A stretch of 64,000 nt of DNA from Kiritimatiellia bacterium (GTDB lineage: Bacteria > Verrucomicrobiota > Kiritimatiellia > JAAZAB01). Numbering within the stretch: position 1 is the first letter of the stretch; every line of letters begins with the position of its first letter. The notes under the pieces are model-generated. The model had not been told where the DNA came from, made no database searches, and worked only from the letters and a program-made list of their open reading frames with translations. Location: contig JAXGPF010000012.1 of assembly GCA_040767085.1 (NCBI GenBank), forward strand, positions 32,001 to 96,000, written 5' to 3'. The translations under genes were made by a program, and so were the position numbers. Below, one piece after another: positions 49,918 through 64,000 of the stretch.

Positions 49918-50016
49918 GGTCGTTTATTATAGCGTCTTTTTAAAATTTGGCCATATTTTTATGCGCCGGGCATGGGAACAAATCAAGCCCAATGCCTGCC
50001 TGGGCCCGCAAATCAC

Positions 50017-50132
50017 GGCTGCGTCATTCTCGGCGGCTCGCCCGGAGGTCTCGCCCTACCCGCGACAAATACTTATGAAACGGTAGGGCGAGGTCTCCGT
50101 ACCGAGCCGTCTGTTCTGAGAATGACGCCGCC
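50017..50132. repeat. Inverted GTAG-type REP pair nested inside CGTC-type inverted ends
   Basis: GGCTGCGTCATTCTC-[..CTCGCCCTACC..GGTAGGGCGAG..]-GAGAATGACGCCGCC. Confidence 0.85.
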
Positions 50133-50249
50133 TGGGCCTGCAAATTAAAAAAAAACAGAAAACAGTGTTCGTAACAAGTCAAGTGTCCGCTTTTTGTAAC
50201 AAGTGATCTGTCCGATTTGTTATTGTGTGTTGTTGCTCCTGGGGTGAGG

Positions 50250-50277
50250 ATTTTCCTCCCCCGCGGGGGAGGAAAAA
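50250..50277 (-). terminator. Hairpin terminator inside the IS, after the transposase stop (repeated at 61169-61196)
   Basis: TTTTCCTCCCCC-GC-GGGGGAGGAAAA. Confidence 0.6.
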
Positions 50278-50279
50278 GT

Positions 50280-51464
50280 TTATGCGACGTCCTCCAGCGA
50301 CGCCGAAATGTTCAACGGTCCTTGGTAGCGGCCAACCACATGCGGGCCATAACGGATGGACACCGTGCCATCGAGGTGCTCGCAGACTTTAACCCGGCAC
50401 TTGGCGAAGCTGAAACGCCATTTTGATGGTCCAATCTGCAAGCGGCGACTCCCGACAGCCACGGTATTGTCATTTTGAACCTCTCGCGCATGCTGCACAC
50501 AGAAAATGCTGTCCAAATCCTGCTCACCGCAAGGCACGAAACACGTTCCTGTTTCCCGCGCCTTCACCTTCATGTTGCGATTGAAGGAAGGCAGAAACTG
50601 TTGTTGAATATAGACGTTGGCCTCGGCCATCGTCCGGATTCCCGCCTGCCTTAATTCCTGCGGCAGGCGCCCTTGCCAGGTCTTAAACATCCGCTCTATT
50701 CGCCCACGTCCCTGGGGGCTATAGCTCGGAATATGTTCGATCCCCAACTGTTGCAACGCCCGTCCAATTTGCGTCAATTGACGCCGGTCCACCGCCCCGC
50801 CTTCTTTGGGCGTATAAAAGAAATGACTGCCACGATCCGTGTACAGACTGCAGAAAACCCCATGTTTAATAATGACTTCTTTCAACCCCTTCATCACCGT
50901 TAATGTCCCTTCCTGGGGCACAAGATAGGCCGTGTAGACTTCGCTGGTGGCATCGTCCATCACCAGGATCAGATCCTGCTTCTGGCCCGCCAGCAGGGGC
51001 AACCAGGCATGGGTGCTGCCATCCACCATCAACATCATCCCCGCCATTGGTCGCCGTTCCCGCTGCTGCCGATGCGGCCCTCGTTTCCGGGCCTTCGCCA
51101 CCAACCCGGCCGTCTGCAAGGCGCTCTTGACCCACTGATAACTGAGCTCGATCCCATGCTCCGCCTGCAGCTTCTCGTGAAAATGCCTCACATTGAAATC
51201 CATGTATTCTTCTCGGTACAACCTCAGCACCTGCTTCACCGTCGCAAGGGGCACGCGCCGCGGCCCCGGTATCTTCCGCCGACGATCCAGCAGCCCGTCG
51301 TAACCATACCGCTCGTAGCGCCCTTTCCAGCGCCGCATGGTCCGGTAGCTCACACCTAGTATCTCCGCCGCCTCCCACCACATTAACCGCCCTTCAATCG
51401 CACGCAAGATCACTTCCTGTACCTTCATTGCCCGCTCCAGTGCTGCCTTCGGATATTCATCCAT
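50280..51464 (-). CDS. DDE (rve-type) transposase
   Basis: N-terminal HTH; VDGSTH, MDDATS, YTDRGSHF, SPQGRGRIERMFKTWQGRL. Confidence 0.92.
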   Translation of the reverse strand: MDEYPKAALERAMKVQEVILRAIEGRLMWWEAAEILGVSYRTMRRWKGRYERYGYDGLLDRRRKIPGPRRVPLATVKQVLRLYREEYMDFNVRHFHEKLQAEHGIELSYQWVKSALQTAGLVAKARKRGPHRQQRERRPMAGMMLMVDGSTHAWLPLLAGQKQDLILVMDDATSEVYTAYLVPQEGTLTVMKGLKEVIIKHGVFCSLYTDRGSHFFYTPKEGGAVDRRQLTQIGRALQQLGIEHIPSYSPQGRGRIERMFKTWQGRLPQELRQAGIRTMAEANVYIQQQFLPSFNRNMKVKARETGTCFVPCGEQDLDSIFCVQHAREVQNDNTVAVGSRRLQIGPSKWRFSFAKCRVKVCEHLDGTVSIRYGPHVVGRYQGPLNISASLEDVA

Positions 51465-51632
51465 ATAACCCCCCTTTGAATGCACCATCCTGACAGCTTT
51501 AAGCGGACAAATCATTTGTTAATTATGCGGCCAAGTCATTTGTTTACGACAAAAAACAGAAAACAGTTGAATTACGGCGGGCTTTTTGGTATTCAAATAA
51601 TGATGCTGCGCGTTGAAGCGCCGTGTCAGTTC

Positions 51633-52463
51633 ATGAATAATAAATATGCGTTAGGTTGGGTGCCGGATGTTCCGGACGTGCGCGACGTTCCATTTGCCGC
51701 CGTTTTTCGCGTGCCGCGCCGGATGCCGGCGGCCATGGATTTGCGCGCGGGCTGCTCCCCGGTGGAAGATCAGGGCGCTTTGGGCTCCTGCACCGCGCAA
51801 GCCCTGGTTGGCGGATTGGAGTATCTGCAGTTGCGCGTTTGGACGCGCCCGCGCCATCCGGCCGGGCCATCCGCGCGTCATCGGGATTTAAGCCGCCTGT
51901 TTTTATACTACAACACGCGCGCGCTGATGGGAACCATTCGTGAGGATTCGGGCGCCATGTTGCGCACCGGGCTGAAATCGCTGCGCAAGACGGGCGTCTG
52001 CGGCGAGGATTTATGGCCCTACCTGATCGAGCGTTTTGCCGAAGCGCCGCCGCGCAAGTGTTACCAGGCGGCGTTGGCTTGCCGGGTCCAGGCCTACCAG
52101 CGCCTGGCCAGTCTGGCGGAAATGAAAGCCTGCCTGGCGGAGGGGTTGCCGTTTGTTTTCGGTTTTGCGGTTTACGAGCATGTGATGGATGCCGCCACCG
52201 CGCGCACCGGCCGGATCCGGCTGCCGCGCCGGCAGGAGCGGATGCTGGGCGGACACGCCGTGCTGGCCGTCGGGTATCGCGACCGGGATCGCACGCTGAT
52301 TTTCCGGAATTCCTGGGGCGCGCCATGGGGCGATGCCGGCTATGGCGAAATCCCGTATGCCTACTTGGAAAGCCGCGAACTTTCCGATGACTTCTGGTGC
52401 ATCCAATCCGCTTGCGGCGCAGGCGGACAGACGCGGCCGGGACGGAGGGTTGCCCGTCCATGA
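51633..52463 (+). CDS. Papain-family (C1) cysteine peptidase
   Basis: DQGALGSCTA, GGHAVLAVGY, RNSWGAPWGDAGY. Confidence 0.9.
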   Translation: MNNKYALGWVPDVPDVRDVPFAAVFRVPRRMPAAMDLRAGCSPVEDQGALGSCTAQALVGGLEYLQLRVWTRPRHPAGPSARHRDLSRLFLYYNTRALMGTIREDSGAMLRTGLKSLRKTGVCGEDLWPYLIERFAEAPPRKCYQAALACRVQAYQRLASLAEMKACLAEGLPFVFGFAVYEHVMDAATARTGRIRLPRRQERMLGGHAVLAVGYRDRDRTLIFRNSWGAPWGDAGYGEIPYAYLESRELSDDFWCIQSACGAGGQTRPGRRVARP

Positions 52464-53689
52464 TGCTGGTGTTTTCGGGGCTGGTGTTGTTGGCCGTGCT
52501 GCTGGCGCTTTCCGCCTTTTTTTCAAGCGCGGAGACGGCGTTCTTTTCGCTCAATCCGATGCAGATTCACCGGATCCGCCGCGTGCATCCACGAGCGGCC
52601 CGCGAGATTGAGGCGCTGCTGGGCGCGCCCACGCAATTGCTTTCCAGCATCCTGATCGGCAACACCCTGGTCAATATGGCTTGCGCCGCGGTTGGCTATG
52701 GGGTATGCGAATGGTTCTGGCCCGGGCGGGGCACGGCCATCTCGATCCCGGCCATGACCTTTCTCCTGATCGTCTTCGGCGAAATCAGTCCCAAGCGCCT
52801 GGCCGTGCGGTTCCCGGAGAAATTGGCGGTGGTTTACCGCCGGCCTTTGAACATCACCATCTGGCTGATGACACCCCTGCGCCTGTTGATCGAGTGGGTT
52901 ACCAGCCGCCTGCAATCGCATTTCCGCCCGCATCGGCCGGTTTTGACCGGCGAGGAACTGCTGACGGCGGTGGACGTCAGCCATGAAGACGGCGCGTTGA
53001 ATACCGAAGAGCGGCTGATGGTGGACGGCATTATCCGCCTGGAAGACATTCAAGCCAAGGATGTCATGACGCCCCGCGTGGATTTGATCGGGGTGGACCT
53101 GGATGACGATCCCGCCGTGCAGGAACAAACCGCCCGCCGGTCGCATTTCCGGTATCTGCCGGTGTACCAGGACAGCCTGGACGAGATTGTCGGTTTTCTG
53201 GATGTGCCGCGTTATTTGCTCGATCCGGCGCGCGATTTGAACGCCGCCACCATCCCGCATTTTTACGTGCCGGACACCGCCCCGCTGGATACTCTGCTGA
53301 CCAGTTTCCAGCAACAGCGGCGGCGGATCGCCATCGTCATTGACGAATACGGCGGCACGGCCGGGATGATTACCCGCGGCGACATCCTGGATGAAATCGT
53401 GGAGTCGGTGGACAACGAGTTCGGCGGCCAGCCCGCGGGCATCCAAACCATGGGCGATAATTGCTGGCTGATTCACGGCAATATCAGCCTGGAGGACATC
53501 AATTACGAACTTGACCTGGAACTGGAAGCCGAGGGCGCCGACCGCCTGGCCGGCTGGGTGACGGCCCGGGCGGAACATATTCCCAGGGTCGGCGAAGTCG
53601 TGGCGGCCCAGGGTTGCCGGGTGACGGTCCGCCAGATGAAAAAACACCGCATCACCATGCTGATGCTTGAAAAAATCGAATCCGATTGA
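52460..53689 (+). CDS. CNNM/CBS/CorC (hemolysin-family, CorB-like) protein
   Basis: SAFFSSAETAFFS, GEISPK, VMTPR, IDEYGGTAG. Confidence 0.9.
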   Translation: MMLVFSGLVLLAVLLALSAFFSSAETAFFSLNPMQIHRIRRVHPRAAREIEALLGAPTQLLSSILIGNTLVNMACAAVGYGVCEWFWPGRGTAISIPAMTFLLIVFGEISPKRLAVRFPEKLAVVYRRPLNITIWLMTPLRLLIEWVTSRLQSHFRPHRPVLTGEELLTAVDVSHEDGALNTEERLMVDGIIRLEDIQAKDVMTPRVDLIGVDLDDDPAVQEQTARRSHFRYLPVYQDSLDEIVGFLDVPRYLLDPARDLNAATIPHFYVPDTAPLDTLLTSFQQQRRRIAIVIDEYGGTAGMITRGDILDEIVESVDNEFGGQPAGIQTMGDNCWLIHGNISLEDINYELDLELEAEGADRLAGWVTARAEHIPRVGEVVAAQGCRVTVRQMKKHRITMLMLEKIESD

Positions 53690-53698
53690 CGCACCGGT

Positions 53699-54685
53699 AT
53701 GTTCATCCTTGAAATATTTCTGCTGCTTCTGTGCCTGGTGTGGGCCGCGTTCTTTGCCGGCATTGAAACTGGTGTGATTTCCATCAACCATTTAAAATTG
53801 CGCCACCTGGCGGAGGAGGAAGAAGACCGTCGCGCTCAATTGCTCGAACGCTTTCTCGCCAATCCCGACCGCCTGCTGGGCACCACGCTGGTAGGTGTCA
53901 ACATCTGTATGGTGGGAGCATCGGTCCTGGGCGCGCGCCTGGGGCATGGCCTGCCGGGCCGCGGCGGCGAGATTTTTACGGAAGCCCTGACGACCATGGT
54001 GGTTTTGATTTGCTGCGAGTATCTGCCCAAGGCGTGGCTTCAAAGCAATCCCATCGCGCGCTGCCGGCCGTTCGCCGGCGTATTGTGGGGCGCTTCGCTG
54101 GTGTTGAAGCCGCTGGCGGATTTTTTCAACTGGTTGACGATGTTTTTGCTGCGCGGCCTGCCCGCGGGGAAGGCGCAAGGCCTCCCGGTGGTCACGCGCG
54201 AAGAAATTGACATCCTGGCGAAAGAAAGCGCCGAACACGGCAATCTGACGCCCAAGCAGCGCATTATGATCCATCGCGTGGTGGACCTGGCCGGCAAAAA
54301 CGCCGCGCAGATCATGGCGCCCCGGGAGCGCATGGTGTTCATTGACAGCCAGGCAACGGCGGAGGAGTTTTTAACCCGGTCGCGCGGGTCCAACTTCACC
54401 CGGTTGCCGGTGTATGACCGGACGCGCGGAGTGTTTGTCGGCATCGCCAATCTGTTCGATGTGCTGGCCGCTCCGGCTGCCCGCTATGCCGAGCCGATTA
54501 CCCGGTTTATGCGGCCGCCGCAATTCCTGCGCGATACGACGCCCCTGACGGAAGTCCTGCCCCGGCTGCGCCGTTCGCGCCAGCCGCTGGCCCTGGTGGC
54601 TAACGCCCGGACGGAAGTCATCGGCCTGCTGACCACGGAAGACGTCCTGCGCCTGATTATCGGCGTGGATGATCCGGCGCAATAA
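53699..54685 (+). CDS. CNNM/CBS domain protein lacking the CorC domain
   Basis: FFAGIETG, LLGTTLVGVN, EYLPK, FTRLPVY, TTEDVL. Confidence 0.85.
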   Translation: MFILEIFLLLLCLVWAAFFAGIETGVISINHLKLRHLAEEEEDRRAQLLERFLANPDRLLGTTLVGVNICMVGASVLGARLGHGLPGRGGEIFTEALTTMVVLICCEYLPKAWLQSNPIARCRPFAGVLWGASLVLKPLADFFNWLTMFLLRGLPAGKAQGLPVVTREEIDILAKESAEHGNLTPKQRIMIHRVVDLAGKNAAQIMAPRERMVFIDSQATAEEFLTRSRGSNFTRLPVYDRTRGVFVGIANLFDVLAAPAARYAEPITRFMRPPQFLRDTTPLTEVLPRLRRSRQPLALVANARTEVIGLLTTEDVLRLIIGVDDPAQ

Positions 54686-54710
54686 GCGGCCCGGCTGCGC
54701 GCGGCCGGTT

Positions 54711-56414
54711 TCAACCCGCGCCGGCCTTGCCGGATTCCCGGGCCCAGCCGTCCCGCAGGGTCGCCGTCCGGTTAAAGACTGGCGCCCCCGGCCGGCTGTC
54801 CGCCGGATCGGTGAAAAAGTACCCCAGGCGTTCAAACTGGTAATGCGCGCCCGGCCCGGCCTGGGCCAGCCCCGGTTCGCACATGGCGGTAACCTTCTGC
54901 AGCGAAGCGGGATTCAGTACCCGGCGGAAATCTCCGCCGGCGGCGGCTTCGTCGGCGGGATCGGGCACGGTGAACAGCCGATCATAAAGCCGGGCTTCCA
55001 GCGGACGGGCGTGGAGCTGGGAAACCCAATGCAGGGTGGCCTTGACCTTTTTATTGCGCTTGGCGCCGGCGCCGCTGCGGGAATCGGGATCGTAAACGCA
55101 ATGCACTTCCGCCGGCTCGCCGGTGGCGGGGTCTTTCACCACGCCGGTGCACTCGACGCAATAGCCGTAACGCAGCCGCACCGCGCGGCCCGGCGCCAGC
55201 CGGTAAAATCCGGACGGCGGATTTTCCATGAAATCATCCCGTTCGATCAGCAGTTCCCGGCTGAACGGCACCGGCCGGACGCCCTGGGCGGGGTCTTCCG
55301 GGTTGTTGACGGCCTCCATGTTTTCCACCCGGCCGGCGGGGTAGTTCTCGATCACGAGGCGCAGCGGGCGCAGCACGGCCATGGCGCGCGCGGCGCGGCG
55401 GTTCAAATCGTCGCGCAGGCAATGTTCCAGCAGCGCCACGTCCGTCAGACTGTTGAATTTGGTGACGCCGATGCGCCGGCAGAATTCCCGGATGGCGGCC
55501 GGGGTGTAGCCGCGCCGGCGCAGTCCGGCCAGGGTCGGCATACGCGGATCGTCCCAACCCTGCACGAGGCCCTCCTGGACGAGCAGCTGCAGCTTGCGTT
55601 TGCTCATCAGCGTATATGACAGGTTCAACCGGGCGAATTCGATCTGCTGGGGATGGCAGGGGGTGGCGAGGGCGTCCAGAATCCAGTCATAAAGCGGGCG
55701 GTGGACTTCGAATTCGAGGGTGCAGATGGAGTGGGTGATGCCCTCGACGGCATCGGACAGGCAGTGGGCGAAATCGTACATGGGGTAAATGCACCAGGTG
55801 TCGCCGGTGCGGTGATGCGGCGCGCGGCGGATGCGGTAAATCACCGGATCGCGCAGGTGCAGATTGGGGGAGGCCATGTCGATTTTCGCGCGCAGAACGT
55901 ACTGGCCGTCCGCGAATTCGCCGGCCTTCATCCGGCGGAACAAGTCCAGGCTTTCCGCCGGCGGCCGGTCGCGCCACGGACTGGGCCGGCCGGGCTGGGT
56001 CGGCACGCCGCGGTAGGCTTTGAATTCCTCGGCCGTCAGGGTGCAGACATAGGCCCGGCCGAGTTGGATCAGGCGTTCGGCGCAATCATACAGGTGCTGG
56101 TAATAGTCGGAGGCGAAATGCAGGTGTTCCCCCCAGTCGAATCCCAGCCACCGGATGTCCGCCTGGATGGCGTCCACGTATTCCACGTCCTCGGTGGCGG
56201 GATTGGTGTCGTCAAACCGCAGGTGGCAGCGTCCGCGGAATTCCTCCGCCAGGCCGAAATTCATGCAGATGGACTTGGCATGGCCGATGTGCAGGTACCC
56301 GTTGGGTTCGGGCGGGAAGCGCGTGACCACCTGCCCGCCATGCTTGTTGGCGCGCAAATCGGCGGCGATGATGTCTTTGATAAAATGGCTGGCGGTGTCA
56401 GTGTCAGTGGTCAT
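54711..56414 (-). CDS. glnS: Glutamine-tRNA ligase
   Basis: [39 protein letters not shown]. Confidence 0.95.
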
Positions 56415-56478
56415 GGTAAAGGGTGTCTCTTTCAAAAGAGTTCAGTGTTGGATGGGCGTTTGATTGCGCCGGCGCCCG

Positions 56479-58005
56479 TTAATCCGCGGCGCCGTAAGCG
56501 GCGCGGTAGGATTTTTCCAGGTCTTTCAGTTGTTTGCCCTTGAGCGCGATCCCCTGGGTTTCCAGGGTTTCCAGCGCGTAATGCAGGCGGCGCAGGGTCA
56601 GGTCGCGGCCCAGCAGAGCCATGGCGTCGAACGCCGGGAGCGCCGCCGGCGCACCGGCCAGCGCCGCGTAGAAAACAGGCATGATCTGCTTCAGTTTCAT
56701 TTTTTCGATTTCAGCGATCCGGTTGAAAACGCCGCGGATGGCGTCCGTGTTCCAGGCGGGCGGCTTTTCCAGTTCCCACTGGGCGGTTTTCAGCAGGCGC
56801 GCCACGCCGGGCCCGTCCAAGCCGCCGGAACTTTGCACCAGCAGGGCCGGGGGGTAATCCAGGCGGTCGGCAAACAGGAAGGCGGCCTGGGGCACAAAAT
56901 CGGCCAACTGGTTCAGGCGCGGTTGGGCCAGGGGAATGATGTTCTGCCAATAGGCATCGTTCAACAGCCAGGCTTGCAGGCGCTGCCATAGTGCCGCCGG
57001 CGCCAGGCTGCGCAGGTAGCGGCCGTTGAAGTGCTGGAGTTTCTGGAAATCGAAAACCGGTCCGCCCAGGCTGATGCGGTCAATCTCAAAATGCTCCGCC
57101 ATTTCCGCGAGCGTGAAAATTTCGCGGCCGTCGGCGAAGCTGTAAGCCATGAGCCCCAGGTAATTGATCAGCGCTTCCGGCAGGAAGCCCGCCTGCCGGT
57201 AATACAGGATGCTGGTGGGATTGCGGCGCTTGGAGAGCTTGGACTTGTCCGGGTTGCGCAGGAGGGGAAGATGGGCGAATTCCGGCGGCGTCCAGCCGAA
57301 GGCCTGGTAAAGCAGGATATGCTTCGGCAGCGAGCTCAGCCATTCTTCGCCGCGGATGACATGGGTGATGCCCATCAAATGATCGTCCACGACATTGGCC
57401 AGGTGGTAAGTCGGGTAGCCGTCCGATTTGAGCAGCACCTGGTGGTCCACCTTGGCCCAGGGAATGCGGATTTCGCCCCGCAGGCGATCGCGCATCGCGC
57501 ATTCGCCGTCCGCCGGGACGCGCAGGCGGAGGACATGCGGTTCCCCCGCCGACAGCCGGCGCGCGGCATCCGCTGGCGCCAGCCGGGCGCACAATCCGTC
57601 GTATCCGGCGCAGTCGGCGCCGGCCTGGCTCCGCCGCAGTTCCGCCAGGCGCTCCGCGGTGCAGAAACAGGGGTAGGCCGCGCCCGCGGCCAGCAGCCGC
57701 CGGCCGTGTTCCAGGTAAATCCGCGTGCGTTCGCTCTGGCGGTAGGGCGCGTGCGGTCCGCCGCAGTCGGGGCCTTCATCCCAGGGAATGCCCAGCCAGC
57801 GGAGCGATGCCAGAATGGCCTGTTCCGATTCGGCGGTCGAACGCGCCTGGTCGGTGTCTTCCACGCGCAGGATGAACTGGCCGCCATGCCGTTTGGCGAA
57901 AGCGTAGTTAAACAGGGCCATGAAAGCCGTGCCGATATGGGGCGCGCCGGTGGGCGAAGGCGCCACGCGGGTCCGGACAGTTGGCTGGTTGTTCTGGGTA
58001 TGCAT
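56479..58005 (-). CDS. gltX: Glutamate-tRNA ligase
   Basis: APSPTGAPHIG, RVEDTD, PTYHLANVVDDH, KLSKR. Confidence 0.95.
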   Translation of the reverse strand: MHTQNNQPTVRTRVAPSPTGAPHIGTAFMALFNYAFAKRHGGQFILRVEDTDQARSTAESEQAILASLRWLGIPWDEGPDCGGPHAPYRQSERTRIYLEHGRRLLAAGAAYPCFCTAERLAELRRSQAGADCAGYDGLCARLAPADAARRLSAGEPHVLRLRVPADGECAMRDRLRGEIRIPWAKVDHQVLLKSDGYPTYHLANVVDDHLMGITHVIRGEEWLSSLPKHILLYQAFGWTPPEFAHLPLLRNPDKSKLSKRRNPTSILYYRQAGFLPEALINYLGLMAYSFADGREIFTLAEMAEHFEIDRISLGGPVFDFQKLQHFNGRYLRSLAPAALWQRLQAWLLNDAYWQNIIPLAQPRLNQLADFVPQAAFLFADRLDYPPALLVQSSGGLDGPGVARLLKTAQWELEKPPAWNTDAIRGVFNRIAEIEKMKLKQIMPVFYAALAGAPAALPAFDAMALLGRDLTLRRLHYALETLETQGIALKGKQLKDLEKSYRAAYGAAD

Positions 58006-58104
58006 GAGACGCGGTAAAAAAACAGCGCCGCCGGCGTAATCCGCTCCGGCGACGCTGGGCCAATGCCAGTTAAATCATAAGAGCCGGCGGCGGCTCGGAG
58101 CGCG

Positions 58105-58584
58105 CTATTTCACCGGGGCGGCCGGCGCGGGCGCGGCTTCTTCCTTGACCGCGGGCGCGGGTTCGACAGGCTTGGCGGCTTCCTGGGGCGCTGCCGTTTC
58201 CGCGGCCGGCGCGGGCGCCGCGGCGGCCGCCGGGGCAACTTCCTCGGGTTTGGCGGCCGCGATGGTTTCCACGTTCTTCACCGTGATCCAGCGCCGGTTC
58301 TGATCGTCAAAGCTGAAAGTGCCGGAAACGCGGACCTTGGCCCCGTCCATGGTTTCCAGGGGTTTGCTGGCTTCATCGAGGGTGATCTCATAACTGGTGA
58401 CAACCAGGCGGATGGCGCTTACCTTGCCGTCCTTGTCCTTGACAACGTTGACCACCCCGCTTTTCCGCACATCAAAGGGAATCCGCTGCTCGGCCCCGCC
58501 GGCGGCGGCTTCCTGCGCGCGGACCGCGGCGCAGCTTATCAGGATGGCAGTGGCGGCGCTGACGATTTTTGCGGATGCACGCAT
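58105..58584 (-). CDS. Small secreted OB-fold-like protein with Ala/Pro tail
   Basis: AAGGAG RBS, signal peptide, KVRVSGT strand, PAPAAE repeats; TTGACG-16 bp-TATACT upstream. Confidence 0.65.
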   Translation of the reverse strand: MRASAKIVSAATAILISCAAVRAQEAAAGGAEQRIPFDVRKSGVVNVVKDKDGKVSAIRLVVTSYEITLDEASKPLETMDGAKVRVSGTFSFDDQNRRWITVKNVETIAAAKPEEVAPAAAAAPAPAAETAAPQEAAKPVEPAPAVKEEAAPAPAAPVK

Positions 58585-58728
58585 GGGAGACTCCTTAATA
58601 AAGTTAATGGTGCGGTTGTCTGTGCGATCAGGCCGGAATCCCGGCAAAATCAGCAGACAGTATAACCGATTTGCCCGCCGCGTCAATCAGATTGCACCGG
58701 TTTTTTGCAAGGCGTCCGCCCGGGGCGT

Positions 58729-58770
58729 AAAAAAGGCATAGCCGGAATTCCGGGCCATTCCGGCTATGCC
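58729..58770 (-). terminator. Rho-independent terminator of the peroxiredoxin gene
   Basis: 14-bp stem GGCATAGCCGGAAT/ATTCCGGCTATGCC with U6 on the minus strand. Confidence 0.8.
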
Positions 58771-58794
58771 GATAATCAGCGATTGATGCCGGGC

Positions 58795-59481
58795 TTACTT
58801 CCCGTGCGGACATTTTTTCAGGCACAGAAACCAATCCAGGCACTTGACATCCGCCCCGGCCTGGTGCATGCGTTCCTTGGCCGCGCCGCAGGATCCGGGC
58901 GGCGGCACGATCACGTCCTCGCCGGGCACCCAGTTGGCGGGCGTCGCGATCTTGTGCTGATCGGAATGCTGCATGGCCACCAGCAGGCGTTTGACTTCTT
59001 CCATGTTGCGCCCGTTGGAAAGCGGGTAGTAAAGGATGGCGCGCACCTTGCCGGTGGGATCGATCATGAACACCGCCCGCACCGCCTGGGTGTTGCTCGC
59101 GCCGGGCTGAAGCATGCCGAAGGCTTTGGAAACTTCCATGGTCAGGTCGCTGATGACCGGGAAATTGACCTCGATGTTCTTCATGCCCTTGTATTCGATT
59201 TTTTCCTTGATGGTGCGCAGCCAGGCGATGTGGCTGTAGGTGCTGTCAATCGAAAGGCCCAGCAGCTTGCAGTTGAGCTTCTCGAATTCCGGCTCCATGG
59301 CGGCGAAAGTCATGAACTCCGTCGTGCAAACCGGCGTGAAATCCGCGGGATGGGAGAAAAATATCACCCACTTGCCCTTGTAATCTTCCGGGAAGTTGAT
59401 CATCCCCTGCGTGGTTTCCGCCTTGAAGGACGGGGCCTGCTCGCCGATCAGCGGCAGCTTAACGGGCGTTGCTTCAGTCAT
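58795..59481 (-). CDS. Peroxiredoxin (Prx6 subfamily)
   Basis: HPADFTPVCTTE, GRNMEE, ATPANW, C-terminal Cys cluster. Confidence 0.92.
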   Translation of the reverse strand: MTEATPVKLPLIGEQAPSFKAETTQGMINFPEDYKGKWVIFFSHPADFTPVCTTEFMTFAAMEPEFEKLNCKLLGLSIDSTYSHIAWLRTIKEKIEYKGMKNIEVNFPVISDLTMEVSKAFGMLQPGASNTQAVRAVFMIDPTGKVRAILYYPLSNGRNMEEVKRLLVAMQHSDQHKIATPANWVPGEDVIVPPPGSCGAAKERMHQAGADVKCLDWFLCLKKCPHGK

Positions 59482-59526
59482 AGTCGTGATTCCTTGGTTT
59501 ATTCCAAAGTGTTTTAAAACGGACGG

Positions 59527-60030
59527 TTACTTGGTGTGCATCTGCAGCATGGTTTCCAGGTCTTCCATTTCAGCCTGAAGGTCTTCCTCATGCTCGACCT
59601 CGTCCTGCAATATCTGGAGGACGGTATTGTAAGTTACCGGATCCTTGCCCATGGTCAGGTTCAACAACTTGCGGTAGGTCATAATCGCGCATTGCTCGCC
59701 GGCGATATTCTGCTCCAGCACTTTTTTGACGAACGGATCATCCGGCGCTTCGTAGCCGCAATTGGTATGCTTGTACCAATCTGCCGGCTTGGTGATCGGC
59801 GTCCCGCCCAGCTGCAGGATGCGCATAGCCAGCATGTCGGCATGCCGGAGCTCGTCGGTGGCGTGCTGGGTCAATTCCGCGATGACGGCTTCCTTCATCG
59901 GGCCCTTGACGACCTTGGCGCCGATCCAGTACTGGTAATAAGCCAGCCATTCATCGGCAAAGGCCTTGTTCAGCACCTGCACCAGCTGCGTGACATCCAT
60001 GTCAACTATTTCTCTGCCCTTGGTTCCCAT
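59527..60030 (-). CDS. DPS-like (DpsL) ferritin-family protein
   Basis: ADEWLAYYQYW, DELRH, NCGY, GEQCAI, DEVEHE. Confidence 0.85.
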   Translation of the reverse strand: MGTKGREIVDMDVTQLVQVLNKAFADEWLAYYQYWIGAKVVKGPMKEAVIAELTQHATDELRHADMLAMRILQLGGTPITKPADWYKHTNCGYEAPDDPFVKKVLEQNIAGEQCAIMTYRKLLNLTMGKDPVTYNTVLQILQDEVEHEEDLQAEMEDLETMLQMHTK

Positions 60031-60034
60031 GGTA

Positions 60035-60193
60035 TTATCCTTTCCTTGATGTGTTTTCTTTGACCGCGATCATCGGTTTTTTGCAACAGACCAACTGGCC
60101 GCCGCCGACTTCCAGCACCTGGACGACATTGCCGCAGATTGCGCAGCGCCAGACCTCGCCGACTTTTTTGATTGCTTCAAGTTTGCATGCCAT
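60035..60193 (-). CDS. Desulforedoxin-like Fe(Cys)4 protein, 52 aa (absent from the ORF track)
   Basis: Manual translation MACKLEAIKKVGEVWRCAICGNVVQVLEVGGGQLVCCKKPMIAVKENTSRKG shows CxxC...CC. Confidence 0.88.
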   Translation of the reverse strand: MACKLEAIKKVGEVWRCAICGNVVQVLEVGGGQLVCCKKPMIAVKENTSRKG

Positions 60194-60287
60194 CAGTCAA
60201 TGATCCTTTCAATGCTGCTTGAACGCCGAGGTTGAGTCTCGCCATCGTCACCTCCCCGCTTCCTTTTATTTGGCATTTAATACTAAT

Positions 60288-60305
60288 TAATAATAATTAT
60301 TATTA
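60288..60305. promoter_or_regulatory. Fur/PerR-type operator candidate
   Basis: Perfect 18-bp palindrome TAATAATAATTATTATTA between the Fur-family gene and the oxidative-stress genes. Confidence 0.7.
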
Positions 60306-60346
60306 CAAGTAAAATTCTTGCGCCCCGGGGAAAACGGCTTTTTTTG

Positions 60347-60832
60347 CTAGCCTGTCGGCAGTTCCTGGCAATGGCGGCACTGTCCGCGAAATTCGATGTG
60401 CACCCGTTCGATCCTGCCGATCGAGGCCAGTTCCGAGGGTATCGCGAAGCGATCCAGAATGGCGGAGTTCAAATCGATGATCTTGCCGCAATGCGCACAG
60501 ATGAAATGGTGGTGGCAATCGGTATTGGCGTCGTACCGGGCCCGGTCGTTAATGGTGGACACCCGGAAAACATTGCCGTTTTCCTCGAAGATCCGCAAGG
60601 TCCTGTAAACCGTATCCAGCGAAATCGCCGGCAGACGCTTGCGCACCCTCTGATAAATGGTTTCCGCATCGGGATGCTCCGTCGTCAGGGATAATTCCCG
60701 CAGGATTTCCCGGCGCTGGCTGGTGGCTTTGAGGCCTTTTTGGCGGCACGCTTTAATAAAATGCTCTACGCGTTTTTTAGTGATTTTTTTCACAATAAGC
60801 GTTGGATAACAATAATTTAAATGTTTAAACAA
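60347..60832 (-). CDS. Fur-family repressor, PerR-like
   Basis: TSQR, HPDAE, ISLDTVYRTL, RYDAN..HHHFICAHC, C-terminal CRHC. Confidence 0.88.
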   Translation of the reverse strand: MFKHLNYCYPTLIVKKITKKRVEHFIKACRQKGLKATSQRREILRELSLTTEHPDAETIYQRVRKRLPAISLDTVYRTLRIFEENGNVFRVSTINDRARYDANTDCHHHFICAHCGKIIDLNSAILDRFAIPSELASIGRIERVHIEFRGQCRHCQELPTG

Positions 60833-60863
60833 TATGATATATCAAAAAAACCATTTGTCAATA

Positions 60864-61023
60864 ATCCAATTTAAAAAGTCCTGGCCGGGGTGGCTGTGCC
60901 CGCCATAGTTCGCCGCGGCGAACGACGGCCGGGAAGCCGGCCCTCCAAGAACATAAAAACCACAGGTTTTTAGAGGGGCGGATTTACACCCCAACCGTTC
61001 TGTAAGGACTTTTGAAATTAACT
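60864..61023 (+). mobile_element. MITE-like dispersed repeat, copy C
   Basis: Ends ATCCAATTTAAAAAGTC / GACTTTTGAAATTAACT; same core as copies A and B. Confidence 0.8.
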
Positions 61024-61084
61024 CCAATGTCAATTTCAGGTTGCCGCCGCACGTATGTCGCGCGCGTGTCGGGGCGCGCGCGCG

Positions 61085-62470
61085 TGTTCGTAACAAGTCA
61101 AGTGTCCGCTTTTTGTAACAAGTGATCTGTCCGATTTGTTATTGTGTGTTGTTGCTCCTGGGGTGAGGATTTTCCTCCCCCGCGGGGGAGGAAAAAGTTT
61201 ATGCGACGTCCTCCAGCGACGCCGAAATGTTCAACGGTCCTTGGTAGCGGCCAACCACATGCGGGCCATAACGGATGGACACCGTGCCATCGAGGTGCTC
61301 GCAGACTTTAACCCGGCACTTGGCGAAGCTGAAACGCCATTTTGATGGTCCAATCTGCAAGCGGCGACTCCCGACAGCCACGGTATTGTCATTTTGAACC
61401 TCTCGCGCATGCTGCACACAGAAAATGCTGTCCAAATCCTGCTCACCGCAAGGCACGAAACACGTTCCTGTTTCCCGCGCCTTCACCTTCATGTTGCGAT
61501 TGAAGGAAGGCAGAAACTGTTGTTGAATATAGACGTTGGCCTCGGCCATCGTCCGGATTCCCGCCTGCCTTAATTCCTGCGGCAGGCGCCCTTGCCAGGT
61601 CTTAAACATCCGCTCTATTCGCCCACGTCCCTGGGGGCTATAGCTCGGAATATGTTCGATCCCCAACTGTTGCAACGCCCGTCCAATTTGCGTCAATTGA
61701 CGCCGGTCCACCGCCCCGCCTTCTTTGGGCGTATAAAAGAAATGACTGCCACGATCCGTGTACAGACTGCAGAAAACCCCATGTTTAATAATGACTTCTT
61801 TCAACCCCTTCATCACCGTTAATGTCCCTTCCTGGGGCACAAGATAGGCCGTGTAGACTTCGCTGGTGGCATCGTCCATCACCAGGATCAGATCCTGCTT
61901 CTGGCCCGCCAGCAGGGGCAACCAGGCATGGGTGCTGCCATCCACCATCAACATCATCCCCGCCATTGGTCGCCGTTCCCGCTGCTGCCGATGCGGCCCT
62001 CGTTTCCGGGCCTTCGCCACCAACCCGGCCGTCTGCAAGGCGCTCTTGACCCACTGATAACTGAGCTCGATCCCATGCTCCGCCTGCAGCTTCTCGTGAA
62101 AATGCCTCACATTGAAATCCATGTATTCTTCTCGGTACAACCTCAGCACCTGCTTCACCGTCGCAAGGGGCACGCGCCGCGGCCCCGGTATCTTCCGCCG
62201 ACGATCCAGCAGCCCGTCGTAACCATACCGCTCGTAGCGCCCTTTCCAGCGCCGCATGGTCCGGTAGCTCACACCTAGTATCTCCGCCGCCTCCCACCAC
62301 ATTAACCGCCCTTCAATCGCACGCAAGATCACTTCCTGTACCTTCATTGCCCGCTCCAGTGCTGCCTTCGGATATTCATCCATATAACCCCCCTTTGAAT
62401 GCACCATCCTGACAGCTTTAAGCGGACAAATCATTTGTTAATTATGCGGCCAAGTCATTTGTTTACGACA
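61085..62470 (-). mobile_element. IS1202-family insertion sequence, copy 2
   Basis: Same ends and identical ORF translations at a constant 10919-bp offset; 16-bp target duplication TCGGGGCGCGCGCGCG (61069-61084 and 62471-62486). Confidence 0.9.
61199..62383 (-). CDS. DDE transposase, copy 2
   Basis: Translation identical to copy 1. Confidence 0.92.
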   Translation of the reverse strand: MDEYPKAALERAMKVQEVILRAIEGRLMWWEAAEILGVSYRTMRRWKGRYERYGYDGLLDRRRKIPGPRRVPLATVKQVLRLYREEYMDFNVRHFHEKLQAEHGIELSYQWVKSALQTAGLVAKARKRGPHRQQRERRPMAGMMLMVDGSTHAWLPLLAGQKQDLILVMDDATSEVYTAYLVPQEGTLTVMKGLKEVIIKHGVFCSLYTDRGSHFFYTPKEGGAVDRRQLTQIGRALQQLGIEHIPSYSPQGRGRIERMFKTWQGRLPQELRQAGIRTMAEANVYIQQQFLPSFNRNMKVKARETGTCFVPCGEQDLDSIFCVQHAREVQNDNTVAVGSRRLQIGPSKWRFSFAKCRVKVCEHLDGTVSIRYGPHVVGRYQGPLNISASLEDVA

Positions 62471-62535
62471 TCGGGGCGCGCGCGCGTTGACATTTGCATG
62501 CTTTTATGTTACACAAACCGTCAAGTTAACATTCC

Positions 62536-64000
62536 ATGCAACCAGACAGCCAAAGCCATAATCCCGCAACCGATCCCGCAACCTTGCGGGTCTGTCCGGC
62601 GCAGATCGAAGTCACGCCGGGGCGCCCGGTGGAGAATACCGGGCGTATGCTGGCCGTCATCGAACAGGCGCGCTCCGCCGGGGCGGACCTGGTGGTTTTT
62701 CCCGAGCTGGCCATTTCCGGGTACCTGCTGGGCGATACCTGGGAACAGCCGGCTTTTCTGCGGGAATGCGCCGCCTGCGGCGAACGCGTCCGGGAAGCAG
62801 CGCGCGGACTGACCGTCATTTTCGGCAATGTAGCGGTGGATTGGCGCAAACGCAACGAAGACGGCCGGCCCCGGAAGTATAACGCTTTGTTTACGGCGTC
62901 GGAAGGCGCATTCCACGGGCCGGCGGGGGGGGCTTATCCGTTTGTCATCAAGACGCTCCTGCCTAATTACCGCGAATTTGACGATAGCCGCCATTTTTTC
63001 GATCTGCGTAAACTGGCCCAGGAATCCGGTGTGGCGCCGGCGGCCTTGGTTGCCCCGGTCTCCGCGGGGCGGGTGAAAATCGGGTGCGTCTTGTGCGAGG
63101 ATGCCTGGGACGCGGATTATCATTTCGCTCCTTTGGCGGCCTTGCGCGCACATGCGCCGGATTTATACGTGAATTGCAGTTGTTCGCCGTTCACGCGGGG
63201 CAAGGCCGGCAAACGCCGGCGCGTTTTTGCCGCCCAGGCGGTCCGGTTGGGCCGGCCATTGATTTGCGTCAACGCGCTCGGCATGCAGAACATCGGCAAG
63301 ACGGTCTATGTTTTTGACGGCGCCTCCGCGGTCTATGACGGCGCGGAACGGGAGATTCTTTTGCCGTCTTTTGAGTCCGCCGCCCCGGTGTTGGATATAC
63401 CGCTGGACGGCCGGCCGTTCGGCGCGCCCGCGCCGGCGGGCGGCGGCGATGACCTGCCGGAGATTTTCCAGGCGCTGCTGGCCGGCGCCCGGCGCTTTCT
63501 GCAGCGCTGCGGGATTGAGCGCGTCGTCGTCGGCCTTTCCGGCGGCATCGATTCGGCCGTGGCGGCCGCGCTTTATCGCCAGGTGCTGCCCCCGGAACGG
63601 CTGCTGGCAGTCAACCTGCCTTCCCGGCACAATTCCCTCACCACCATCAACCTGGCGCGCCAGACGGCCGCCAACCTCGGCTGCCTCTACGCGGAAATAC
63701 CGATTGACGAAAGCGTGGAAATGACGGTGCGCCAGTTAAACGGTCTGCGCGTGGCCAGCGTGGATGGCGCCTTGCGCCGGGAATTGCACCTGACGGAAGG
63801 CGGGGTGGAAAACATCCAGGCGCGGGACCGGTCGGCGCGCGTGTTGGCGGCCGTGGCGGCGGCTTTCGGCGGCGCTTTCACCTGCAATGCCAACAAGACT
63901 GAGGCCGCCGTGGGTTATTCCACCTTGTACGGCGACCTGGGCGGATTCCTGGCGCTGCTGGGCGATCTTTGGAAGGGTGAAGTTTACCGGCTGGGCCGGC
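62536..64000 (+). CDS. nadE: Glutamine-dependent NAD+ synthetase, runs off the window end (absent from the ORF track)
   Basis: Manual translation: VFPELAISGY, KTLLPNYREFDDSRHF, LCEDAW, GLSGGIDSAV, ENIQARDR, NKTEAAVGYSTLYGD. Confidence 0.92.
   Translation, partial: MQPDSQSHNPATDPATLRVCPAQIEVTPGRPVENTGRMLAVIEQARSAGADLVVFPELAISGYLLGDTWEQPAFLRECAACGERVREAARGLTVIFGNVAVDWRKRNEDGRPRKYNALFTASEGAFHGPAGGAYPFVIKTLLPNYREFDDSRHFFDLRKLAQESGVAPAALVAPVSAGRVKIGCVLCEDAWDADYHFAPLAALRAHAPDLYVNCSCSPFTRGKAGKRRRVFAAQAVRLGRPLICVNALGMQNIGKTVYVFDGASAVYDGAEREILLPSFESAAPVLDIPLDGRPFGAPAPAGGGDDLPEIFQALLAGARRFLQRCGIERVVVGLSGGIDSAVAAALYRQVLPPERLLAVNLPSRHNSLTTINLARQTAANLGCLYAEIPIDESVEMTVRQLNGLRVASVDGALRRELHLTEGGVENIQARDRSARVLAAVAAAFGGAFTCNANKTEAAVGYSTLYGDLGGFLALLGDLWKGEVYRLGR

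Follow-up and report, generated by a model that had tools for sequence, protein, structure and literature searches.

The ISTde1 subgroup of the IS1202 family of insertion sequences (IS) comprises ISTde1, ISCARN53/62/63, ISHahy13, ISShha1, ISVisp7 and others (Siguier et al. 10.1101/2022.12.17.520857; Harmer and Hall group PMC10132070). We analysed a stretch of 64,000 nt (hereafter the window) from the genome of a sludge bacterium (4.08 Mb in 28 contigs, 61% GC), in which two copies of an apparent element of this kind lie upstream of a C1-peptidase gene and of nadE. The element shares with the subgroup, as the accessible parts of these two accounts present it, TGT ends, duplications of 15-17 bp, a length of about 1.3-1.5 kb and a single DDE transposase of 394-450 aa with an N-terminal helix-turn-helix (HTH), two extra D and a Q seven residues past the E. 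It differs in its target: those parts describe none for the subgroup, whereas here insertion is base-exact at a probable promoter. According to the same parts, only the subgroup with 5-6 bp duplications is said to be targeted (10.1101/2022.12.17.520857; PMC10132070). Its members ISAba32 and ISAjo2, 'hunters' of dif and pdif sites, are described there as inserting in a specific orientation, with the left inverted-repeat end (IRL) adjoining a site to which a host protein binds and with the duplication directly flanked by this landmark, a geometry that resembles the one reported below. Unlike our element, they take the XerC side of dif-like sites as their landmark, duplicate 5-6 bp and are mostly plasmid-borne.

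Eukaryotic long terminal repeat (LTR) retrotransposons provide a more distant analogy. The integrases of yeast Ty3 and Ty1 (at RNA polymerase III genes) and of fission-yeast Tf1 (at RNA polymerase II promoters) are tethered by TFIIIB, AC40 or Sap1. For these elements the landmark is the machinery of transcription initiation, which brings them to a safe haven just upstream of genes, as we propose here, although their targeting parts have no homology to this element. In bacteria, Tn7 reaches one site, attTn7, through its own sequence-specific protein TnsD, and the IS5 insertions upstream of fucAO, glpFK and flhDC are selected activating insertions guided by DNA structure. Both share with our element a safe-haven or promoter-proximal insertion, but IS5 follows no base-exact rule at every promoter. 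The full-text literature, searched without most subscription journals, ISfinder and TnCentral pages and paper supplements, yielded no account of a bacterial IS, this one or another, that targets promoters.

The element analysed here almost certainly targets the upstream edge of the promoter -35 box. Its insertions follow a site rule with a biased orientation, at sites with a -10-like box and a co-oriented gene, and distant relatives obey the same rule. New here are the test on 31 copies in a single genome, in which the -10 box was set against controls, the finding that the cut is anchored on the -35 box, the flipped case, the conserved empty sites, a bias against T at -7 (the final base of the -10 box) and a second clade of reversed polarity in the same host.

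Target sites of the element in one genome

The element has 1386 bp, TGT..ACA ends and a single transposase gene. The genome encodes 31 full copies, 28 of them at 100% identity, and one end fragment at a contig edge. Perfect duplications flank 22 copies (15 bp in 6, 16 bp in 14 and 17 bp in 2), and TTG lies directly past the duplication, on the IRL side, in 21 of these 22. The background frequency of TTG is 1.59% per position, which gives a binomial p of about 4e-37. In the 22nd copy, TTGCCA-N17-CATGAT adjoins the duplication on the other side, ahead of a leftward open reading frame (ORF), and we therefore regard it as a flipped insertion at a promoter. Three more copies have a near-perfect duplication followed by TTG, and of the six copies lacking a duplication, four nonetheless carry TTG at a distance of 15-16 nt from the IRL tip. 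Overall, TTG is found 15-17 nt from this tip in 27 of the 31 right flanks (26 distinct). When the copies without duplication were compared as possible inversion partners, no left 16-mer equalled another copy's right 16-mer, so deletions or lost partners are more likely than inversions.

Aligned on TTG, the 26 distinct flanks read T26 T26 G26 (A12/C12) C15 (A11/T8), with T16 G16 occupying positions 21-22 and T19 A21 positions 24-25. The consensus in this genome is TTG(A/C)nn-N14-TGnTA. The first-pass annotation had only the two window copies at hand and expected a -35 and -10 signal to emerge at a fixed offset once all copies were aligned on the outer end of the duplication; this was the case, with TTG in 26 of 26 anchored flanks and TA at positions 24-25. 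We also considered the transposase-binding repeats of the IRL (TTGGCC, TTGTCC) as mimics of the target box and ruled this out, as the targets avoid G and T at box position 4 (1 + 1 of 26).

The two window copies are 100% alike and lie in the same orientation, with the transposase gene on the - strand and the transposase-start end (IRL) pointing at the TTG motif in both. The duplications of 15 and 16 bp and the boxes TTGAAT/TATTCA and TTGACA/TACACA are found by direct reading where they had been claimed, as is the common orientation of the IS relative to the motif. Taken as a general rule, this orientation holds for 21 of the 22 genome copies; it fails in the flipped copy and in the second clade, which has the opposite polarity. 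The features of the two loci are the following, with the strand where there is one (IRR, right inverted-repeat end):

50151..50165: left target duplication of IS copy 1, AAAAACAGAAAACAG, 15 bp, same as 51552-51566
50166..51551, - strand: IS copy 1, 1386 bp, TGT..ACA ends, one of 31 full genome copies
50168..50217: IRR end with a tandem pair of 25-bp subterminal repeats, to which the transposase presumably binds
50251..50276: perfect 26-bp palindrome, 3' of the transposase stop, also a self-match in the genome search
50280..51464, - strand: transposase gene, 394 aa from the ATG common to homologues; the ORF extends back to 51515
51499..51551: IRL end, two tandem 22-24-bp subterminal repeats and an inverted-repeat pair, facing the target promoter
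51552..51566: right target duplication of IS copy 1, 15 bp, promoter positions about -36 to -50
51567..51572, + strand: -35-like box TTGAAT of the C1-peptidase gene, read directly, kept at the empty orthologous site of a same-genus genome
51587..51595, + strand: extended -10-like TGG TATTCA (TGG 51587-51589, TATTCA 51590-51595), 17-bp spacer after TTGAAT
61069..61084: left target duplication of IS copy 2, TCGGGGCGCGCGCGCG, 16 bp
61085..62470, - strand: IS copy 2, identical to copy 1
62471..62486: right target duplication of IS copy 2, TCGGGGCGCGCGCGCG, 16 bp
62487..62492, + strand: -35 box TTGACA of nadE, same in two same-genus genomes without the IS here
62507..62515, + strand: extended -10-like TGT TACACA (TGT 62507-62509, TACACA 62510-62515), 17-bp spacer after TTGACA
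62536..63999, + strand: nadE (glutamine-dependent NAD synthetase), Pfam CN_hydrolase and NAD_synthase, runs off the window

The IS boundaries were checked independently. In contigs from four metagenome runs of four studies, the IS forms a separate unitig that spans exactly 61085-62470. Its word depth is 54-130, against ~3-8 in neighbouring contigs, a depth that is not a copy number. We also searched for empty sites by aligning contigs of four DNA runs to 52000-64000, and none among the matches listed bridges or skips the IS.

We then compared the -10 region of the occupied sites with controls. TA is present at positions 24-25 in 18 of 26 sites. The control rate is 2.6% for the 129,398 genomic TTG, 8.1-9.5% for TTG in a low-GC context and 24.3% for low-GC TTGACA, and the excess remains significant against the highest of these (p = 1.7e-6). 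TG and TA occur together in 11 of 26 occupied sites, versus 0.2-3.0% in the controls. The -10 signal thus does not simply accompany any TTG that lies in AT-rich DNA. When spacers of 16-18 bp are allowed, TA is found in 22 of the 26 sites (16 bp in 4, 17 bp in 17 and 18 bp in 1). Since the duplication adjoins TTG whatever the spacer length, the cut is measured from the -35 box and not from the -10 box. Upstream of TTG, inside the duplication, positions -5 to -7 are 86-90% A/T, and such a tract also precedes the host tRNA promoters. The final T of the -10 box, whose absence from both window sites had been noted from the start, is missing from most occupied sites: it is present in 5 of 26 at fixed 17-bp spacing and in 4 of the 22 with TA at spacers of 16-18 bp, and in about half of these 22 the position is taken by A. 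Among unoccupied non-coding TTG[AC]-N16-TGnTA sites, the final T is found in 34 of the first 60 listed. We attempted a genome-wide census of promoter classes by their excess over a positional baseline, which was too noisy to be relied on (53 +/- 17 per offset in the class with TG and no T).

The surviving copies all lie between genes. Of the occupied sites, 11 combine TG and TA at 17-bp spacing; each of these is upstream of a co-oriented ORF and, in this ORF-based reading, none was seen in coding DNA, whereas 37 of 128 unoccupied motif matches lie within confidently coding DNA. The first co-oriented downstream ORF has a Pfam match in 21 of 28 loci, a census that left out loci L029 and L030 and the 95% copy. 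The target genes include those for transketolase, phosphoenolpyruvate (PEP) carboxykinase, glutamate dehydrogenase, PurL, NadE and regulators. The sole gene for the anticodon of tRNA-Ala(GGC) has a target 16 nt ahead of it, which is the only promoter-like site there. A single tblastn match in the genome indicates that nadE is also single-copy.

Both window promoters are conserved and IS-free in genomes of the same genus, where the boxes are kept amid diverged spacers. The peptidase site of genome G004 keeps TTGAAT and its -10 reads TAATTA, and the nadE site of G002 and G003 has an identical TTGACA-N17-TACACA. We searched for the IS in four same-genus genomes and found no match; fragmented metagenome-assembled genomes (MAGs) often lose repeats, so its absence is not established.

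Several other observations concern these copies and their surroundings. The C1-peptidase gene has in-frame ATG codons at 51600 and 51603, and the second starts at the 8th base past the -10 hexamer both in the window (51590-51605) and in G004 (locus L140), which suggests that its mRNA is leaderless. The palindrome at 50251-50276 (TTTTCCTCCCCCG/CGGGGGAGGAAAA) starts 3 bp past the transposase stop; it is not a canonical terminator because the T run comes before the stem on both strands. The duplication of copy 2 lies within an alternating GC run, GCGCGCGTGTCGGGGCGCGCGCGCG (61053-61084); most other targets are preceded by A/T-rich tracts. Just upstream of IS copy 1, at 50013-50135, there is a hairpin-forming element of ~120 bp (RNAfold -74 kcal/mol) with dozens of genome copies at 85-97% identity (67 BLAST segments together with a second stretch), which is probably a miniature inverted-repeat transposable element (MITE)-like or repetitive extragenic palindromic (REP)-like repeat. 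The copy at 142265-143650 of contig C27 (L003) is separated from its 16-bp duplication by one repeat of its own terminal 15 bp (IRL tip), and the duplication is followed by TTGACA. One reading of this is a second insertion at the same promoter with a 31-bp stagger, then recombination between the copies. Finally, the copies at C1:8893-10278 and C28:105706-107091 have a common right flank (TCGGCGCTTCCGACA, then TTGACT...) and different left flanks, reflecting a segmental duplication, a rearrangement by way of the IS or, on the 13-kb contig, a variant of the assembly.

Distant relatives and a second clade

We scanned GTDB genomes with a profile and fetched 80 loci with transposases 44-66% identical to ours. 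Their hosts are Kiritimatiellia, Verrucomicrobiota, Methylomirabilota, an actinomycete and many Alphaproteobacteria MAGs. The records nearest to the genome analysed here are Kiritimatiellia and Verrucomicrobiota MAGs. The duplication finder relied on TG/CA ends, a flanking repeat and inverted-repeat similarity, and never used TTG. It found duplications in 45 of the 80 loci, and 39 were kept after strict filters; the six dropped had a mismatch (L062, L065, L093, L108) or an 18-bp repeat (L032 and L068, the latter also ending in GCA, not ACA). The duplications measure 15 bp in 5 cases, 16 bp in 22 and 17 bp in 12. TTG lies directly past the duplication in 33 of 39 insertions on the IRL side and in 1 of 39 on the IRR side, so that the signal proposed from the window recurs when homologues are aligned. 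In the -10 region, 32 of the 39 carry A at position 25, 30 carry T at position 29 and 23 carry T at position 24. Among the six relatives without TTG, five read nTG and a TAnnn box at the right spacing (four TAnnnT, one TAnnnC). By their sequence, the targets of the relatives are canonical TTGnnn-N17-TAnnnT promoters without TG. A Mesorhizobium plasmid match (46% identity, 86% coverage) is apparently partial, and no duplication was found there.

A class-wide search with the NCBIfam model NF033594 gave hits above the cut-off in 8 of 301 genomes. For the first clade it brought little that was new, with two sites repeating L031 and L038, and it revealed a second clade. The model also scored above the cut-off in the Escherichia coli control genome. 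Elements of the second clade measure 1.44-1.57 kb, make 16-bp duplications and have transposases 20-24% identical to that of the first element. Their best NCBIfam match is again NF033594, at 153-170 bits and thus under the cut-off, and the DD and Q signature is kept. The genome analysed here has four such copies of ~1458 bp, with TGTCGGGGG..CCACGACA ends and 16-bp duplications:

C2:84903-86360, C22:592720-594177, C24:289994-291451 and C25:265199-266656: second-clade copies

In all three assessable host copies, the TTG box lies past the duplication on the transposase-stop side (IRR), with the targets TTGACT-N16-TATGCT, TTGACT-N16-TAGTAT and TTGTGA-N17-TAGGCT. In the fourth copy (C25), the first element sits directly past the duplication of the second, so both elements can pile up at one promoter. 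Six second-clade relatives have TTGCAA, TTGACG, TTGCCA, TTTACC, TGGAGA and GTGCGT on the IRR side (TTG in three of six), and none of the six has TTG on the IRL side. As the second clade also follows the TTG rule, the rule would be older than the split between the clades, based on a small sample of nine sites. As this clade faces the promoter with its IRR, the promoter-facing end is not fixed across the family.

Transposase and family assignment

The sequence evidence places the element in the IS1202 family (formerly ISNCY, IS1202 group). The transposase matches NF033594 (transpos_ISNCY_2) with 352.4 bits, above the cut-off of 250; its score with the IS481 model is 113 bits, under the cut-off of 224. 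It has Pfam HTH_28/HTH_32 domains, and its homologues measure 394-397 aa. D165, D187-D188, D227, E274 and Q281 (411-aa numbering) are invariant across 12 aligned sequences, and the DDE, DD and Q columns are also invariant with ISKpn21 and with the distant second clade. A Q, instead of K or R, seven residues past the E and two extra D past the first D and ahead of the second form the signature of the IS1202 family. The ends of the element, TGTTCGTAAC... and ...TTTACGACA, likewise fit the family, whose terminal inverted repeats start with 5'-TGT and share a conserved inner block near position 20: they begin with TGT and have an inverted-repeat pair and tandem inner repeats. The transposase of ISKpn21, which stands here for the ISAba32/ISAjo2 subgroup, is ~31% identical to ours and has a long C-terminal extension. 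The plasmid tblastn matches listed at 29-34% identity are, where annotated, labelled ISNCY, ISKpn21 or IS1202-like ISEsa1; two further listed plasmid matches, at 43-46% identity, have no ISNCY/IS1202 label. Homologues are very numerous, with at least 7999 proteins at E <= 1e-20 among 8000 candidates scored.

The element is probably still active. Within the family, it fits the ISTde1-type branch, an assignment already proposed in the first-pass annotation, on which family match and 15-17 bp duplications agree. In the available parts of the family descriptions, the ISTde1 subgroup has an insertion of 5-10 aa in the stretch from the second D to the E (10.1101/2022.12.17.520857; PMC10132070). The length of this stretch differs by 2 aa between our transposase and ISKpn21, the sole reference compared. 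An AlphaFold2 model of the transposase, built from a 12-row alignment, was poor (mean predicted local distance difference test, pLDDT, 58.3; predicted template-modelling score, pTM, 0.42), and the domain order alone is usable. This low-confidence model predicts a helical N-terminus, a central alpha/beta core and an all-beta C-terminus (~339-397).

What the element may recognise

The site rule leaves the question of what is recognised. On balance, we favour as the probable landmark a promoter held by RNA polymerase holoenzyme, and not a DNA word. The transpososome would dock on a promoter bound by sigma70 holoenzyme, with sigma region 4 on the -35 box. Of the two staggered cuts, one would fall at the -36/-35 junction, directly upstream of TTG, and its partner a further 15-17 bp upstream. 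The promoter would keep its own DNA to about -51, including the proximal A/T tract, and the element would sit just beyond -51 with its transposase gene pointing away from the promoter. As the duplication would restore promoter DNA to about -51, expression should survive, making the site a safe haven. Intact single-copy nadE, the sole tRNA-Ala(GGC) gene and central metabolic genes downstream suggest that occupied genes are still expressed. A protein landmark is supported by ISAba32/ISAjo2 since their IRL is described as adjoining the XerC side of dif, with the landmark flush with the duplication. Besides, the form of the -10 box changes with the host, TGnTA being found in this genome and TAnnnT in the mostly alphaproteobacterial relatives; a site defined by the host polymerase would behave in this way. 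A predicted complex of transposase residues 18-411 with host sigma70 region 4 scored 0.00, versus a mark of 0.32; the prediction was made without controls and speaks neither for nor against.

Several points weigh against this explanation. TA is missing at spacers of 16-18 bp in 4 of the 26 anchored sites, and a stock scan for the sigma70 consensus, which requires the final -10 T, calls neither window site. Whereas 24 of 30 tRNA promoters have this T, 4 of 22 occupied sites do (p = 1.4e-5); TG is found in 8 of the 30 and in 15 of the 22 (p = 0.005). The occupied sites thus do not represent host promoters fairly, and this bias could mean that the transposase itself reads TGnTA. The word promoter itself draws on sequence, gene context and conservation. 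Among the relatives, the 35 of 80 loci without a duplication fall outside the count, and several insertions share the same MAGs.

There are three possible readings of the missing T at -7. The element may capture polymerase in long-lived closed complexes, in which the elements read in the duplex are present and the base of the melting stage is absent. Extended -10 promoters may better tolerate the loss of far-upstream DNA. Or this transposase may itself read TGnTA. A bolder version of polymerase docking can be put forward tentatively, with somewhat less than even confidence: the transposase would read no DNA, docking on the holoenzyme with sigma region 4 as its ruler, in a bacterial parallel to Ty3 with TFIIIB, and docking on a DNA-bound host protein would be family-wide, with XerC used by one branch and sigma70 by others. 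If true, the preference for promoters with a -35 box, TG and -12T and without -7T would reflect the capture of long-lived closed complexes, the insertion pattern would be a natural record of polymerase dwell, and there would be a route to promoter-proximal, gene-sparing insertion tools.

The most serious rival is that the transposase, or the transpososome, reads a two-part DNA word, TTG and TGnTA two helical turns away, with no involvement of polymerase. As there are two binding sites per end, such a transpososome probably has four protomers. TTG is invariant and flush with the cut, as a directly read word would be, and the occupied sites are richer in TG and poorer in final T than tRNA promoters, the T also being rarer than at unoccupied motif sites. 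Moreover, the three host targets of the second element have an ordinary TAnnnT without TG, so the TGnTA bias goes with the element and not with the host. We nevertheless consider direct reading less likely. The relatives use TAnnnT without TG, so that close members of the family would need different second half-sites. The element tolerates spacers of 16, 17 and 18 bp, -35 variants other than TTG are used when the -10 is good, and the targets have an upstream A/T tract of the host-promoter type. The many unoccupied motifs in coding DNA, set against none seen among the 11 occupied sites, also speak against a DNA word.

The site rule might alternatively result from random or weakly biased insertion followed by purifying selection that spared copies upstream of promoters. 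Insertions within genes would be counter-selected, in line with the intergenic position of all surviving copies, but selection can neither set the duplication flush to TTG in 22 of 22 copies nor produce orientations at 21 to 1, and neutral intergenic sites without a promoter are unused. With 28 copies at 100% identity, the burst must be recent, leaving little time for purging, and this explanation is effectively excluded. Targeting of Xer (dif-like) sites is likewise effectively excluded: the ISAba32/ISAjo2 branch belongs to the same family and its IRL is described as adjoining the landmark at duplication distance (10.1101/2022.12.17.520857; PMC10132070), but the information in our flank logo is confined to TTG(A/C), the TGnTA region and a short A/T tract, with none of the 11-6-11 palindrome named at the outset as the alternative, and ~27 different targets lie in one genome, each before a gene, with duplications of 15-17 bp and not 5-6 bp.

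For most insertion sequences, nothing is understood as poorly as how they choose their targets. A rule that places insertions at the -35 box, on its upstream edge, would explain why elements of this sort can multiply to dozens of copies and leave genes unbroken, and gives annotators a free promoter marker in uncultured bacteria. The E. coli family member could be a convenient experimental entry point. The rule also opens to direct testing a long-standing question, whether bacterial transposases, like yeast retrotransposons, can be guided by the transcription machinery.

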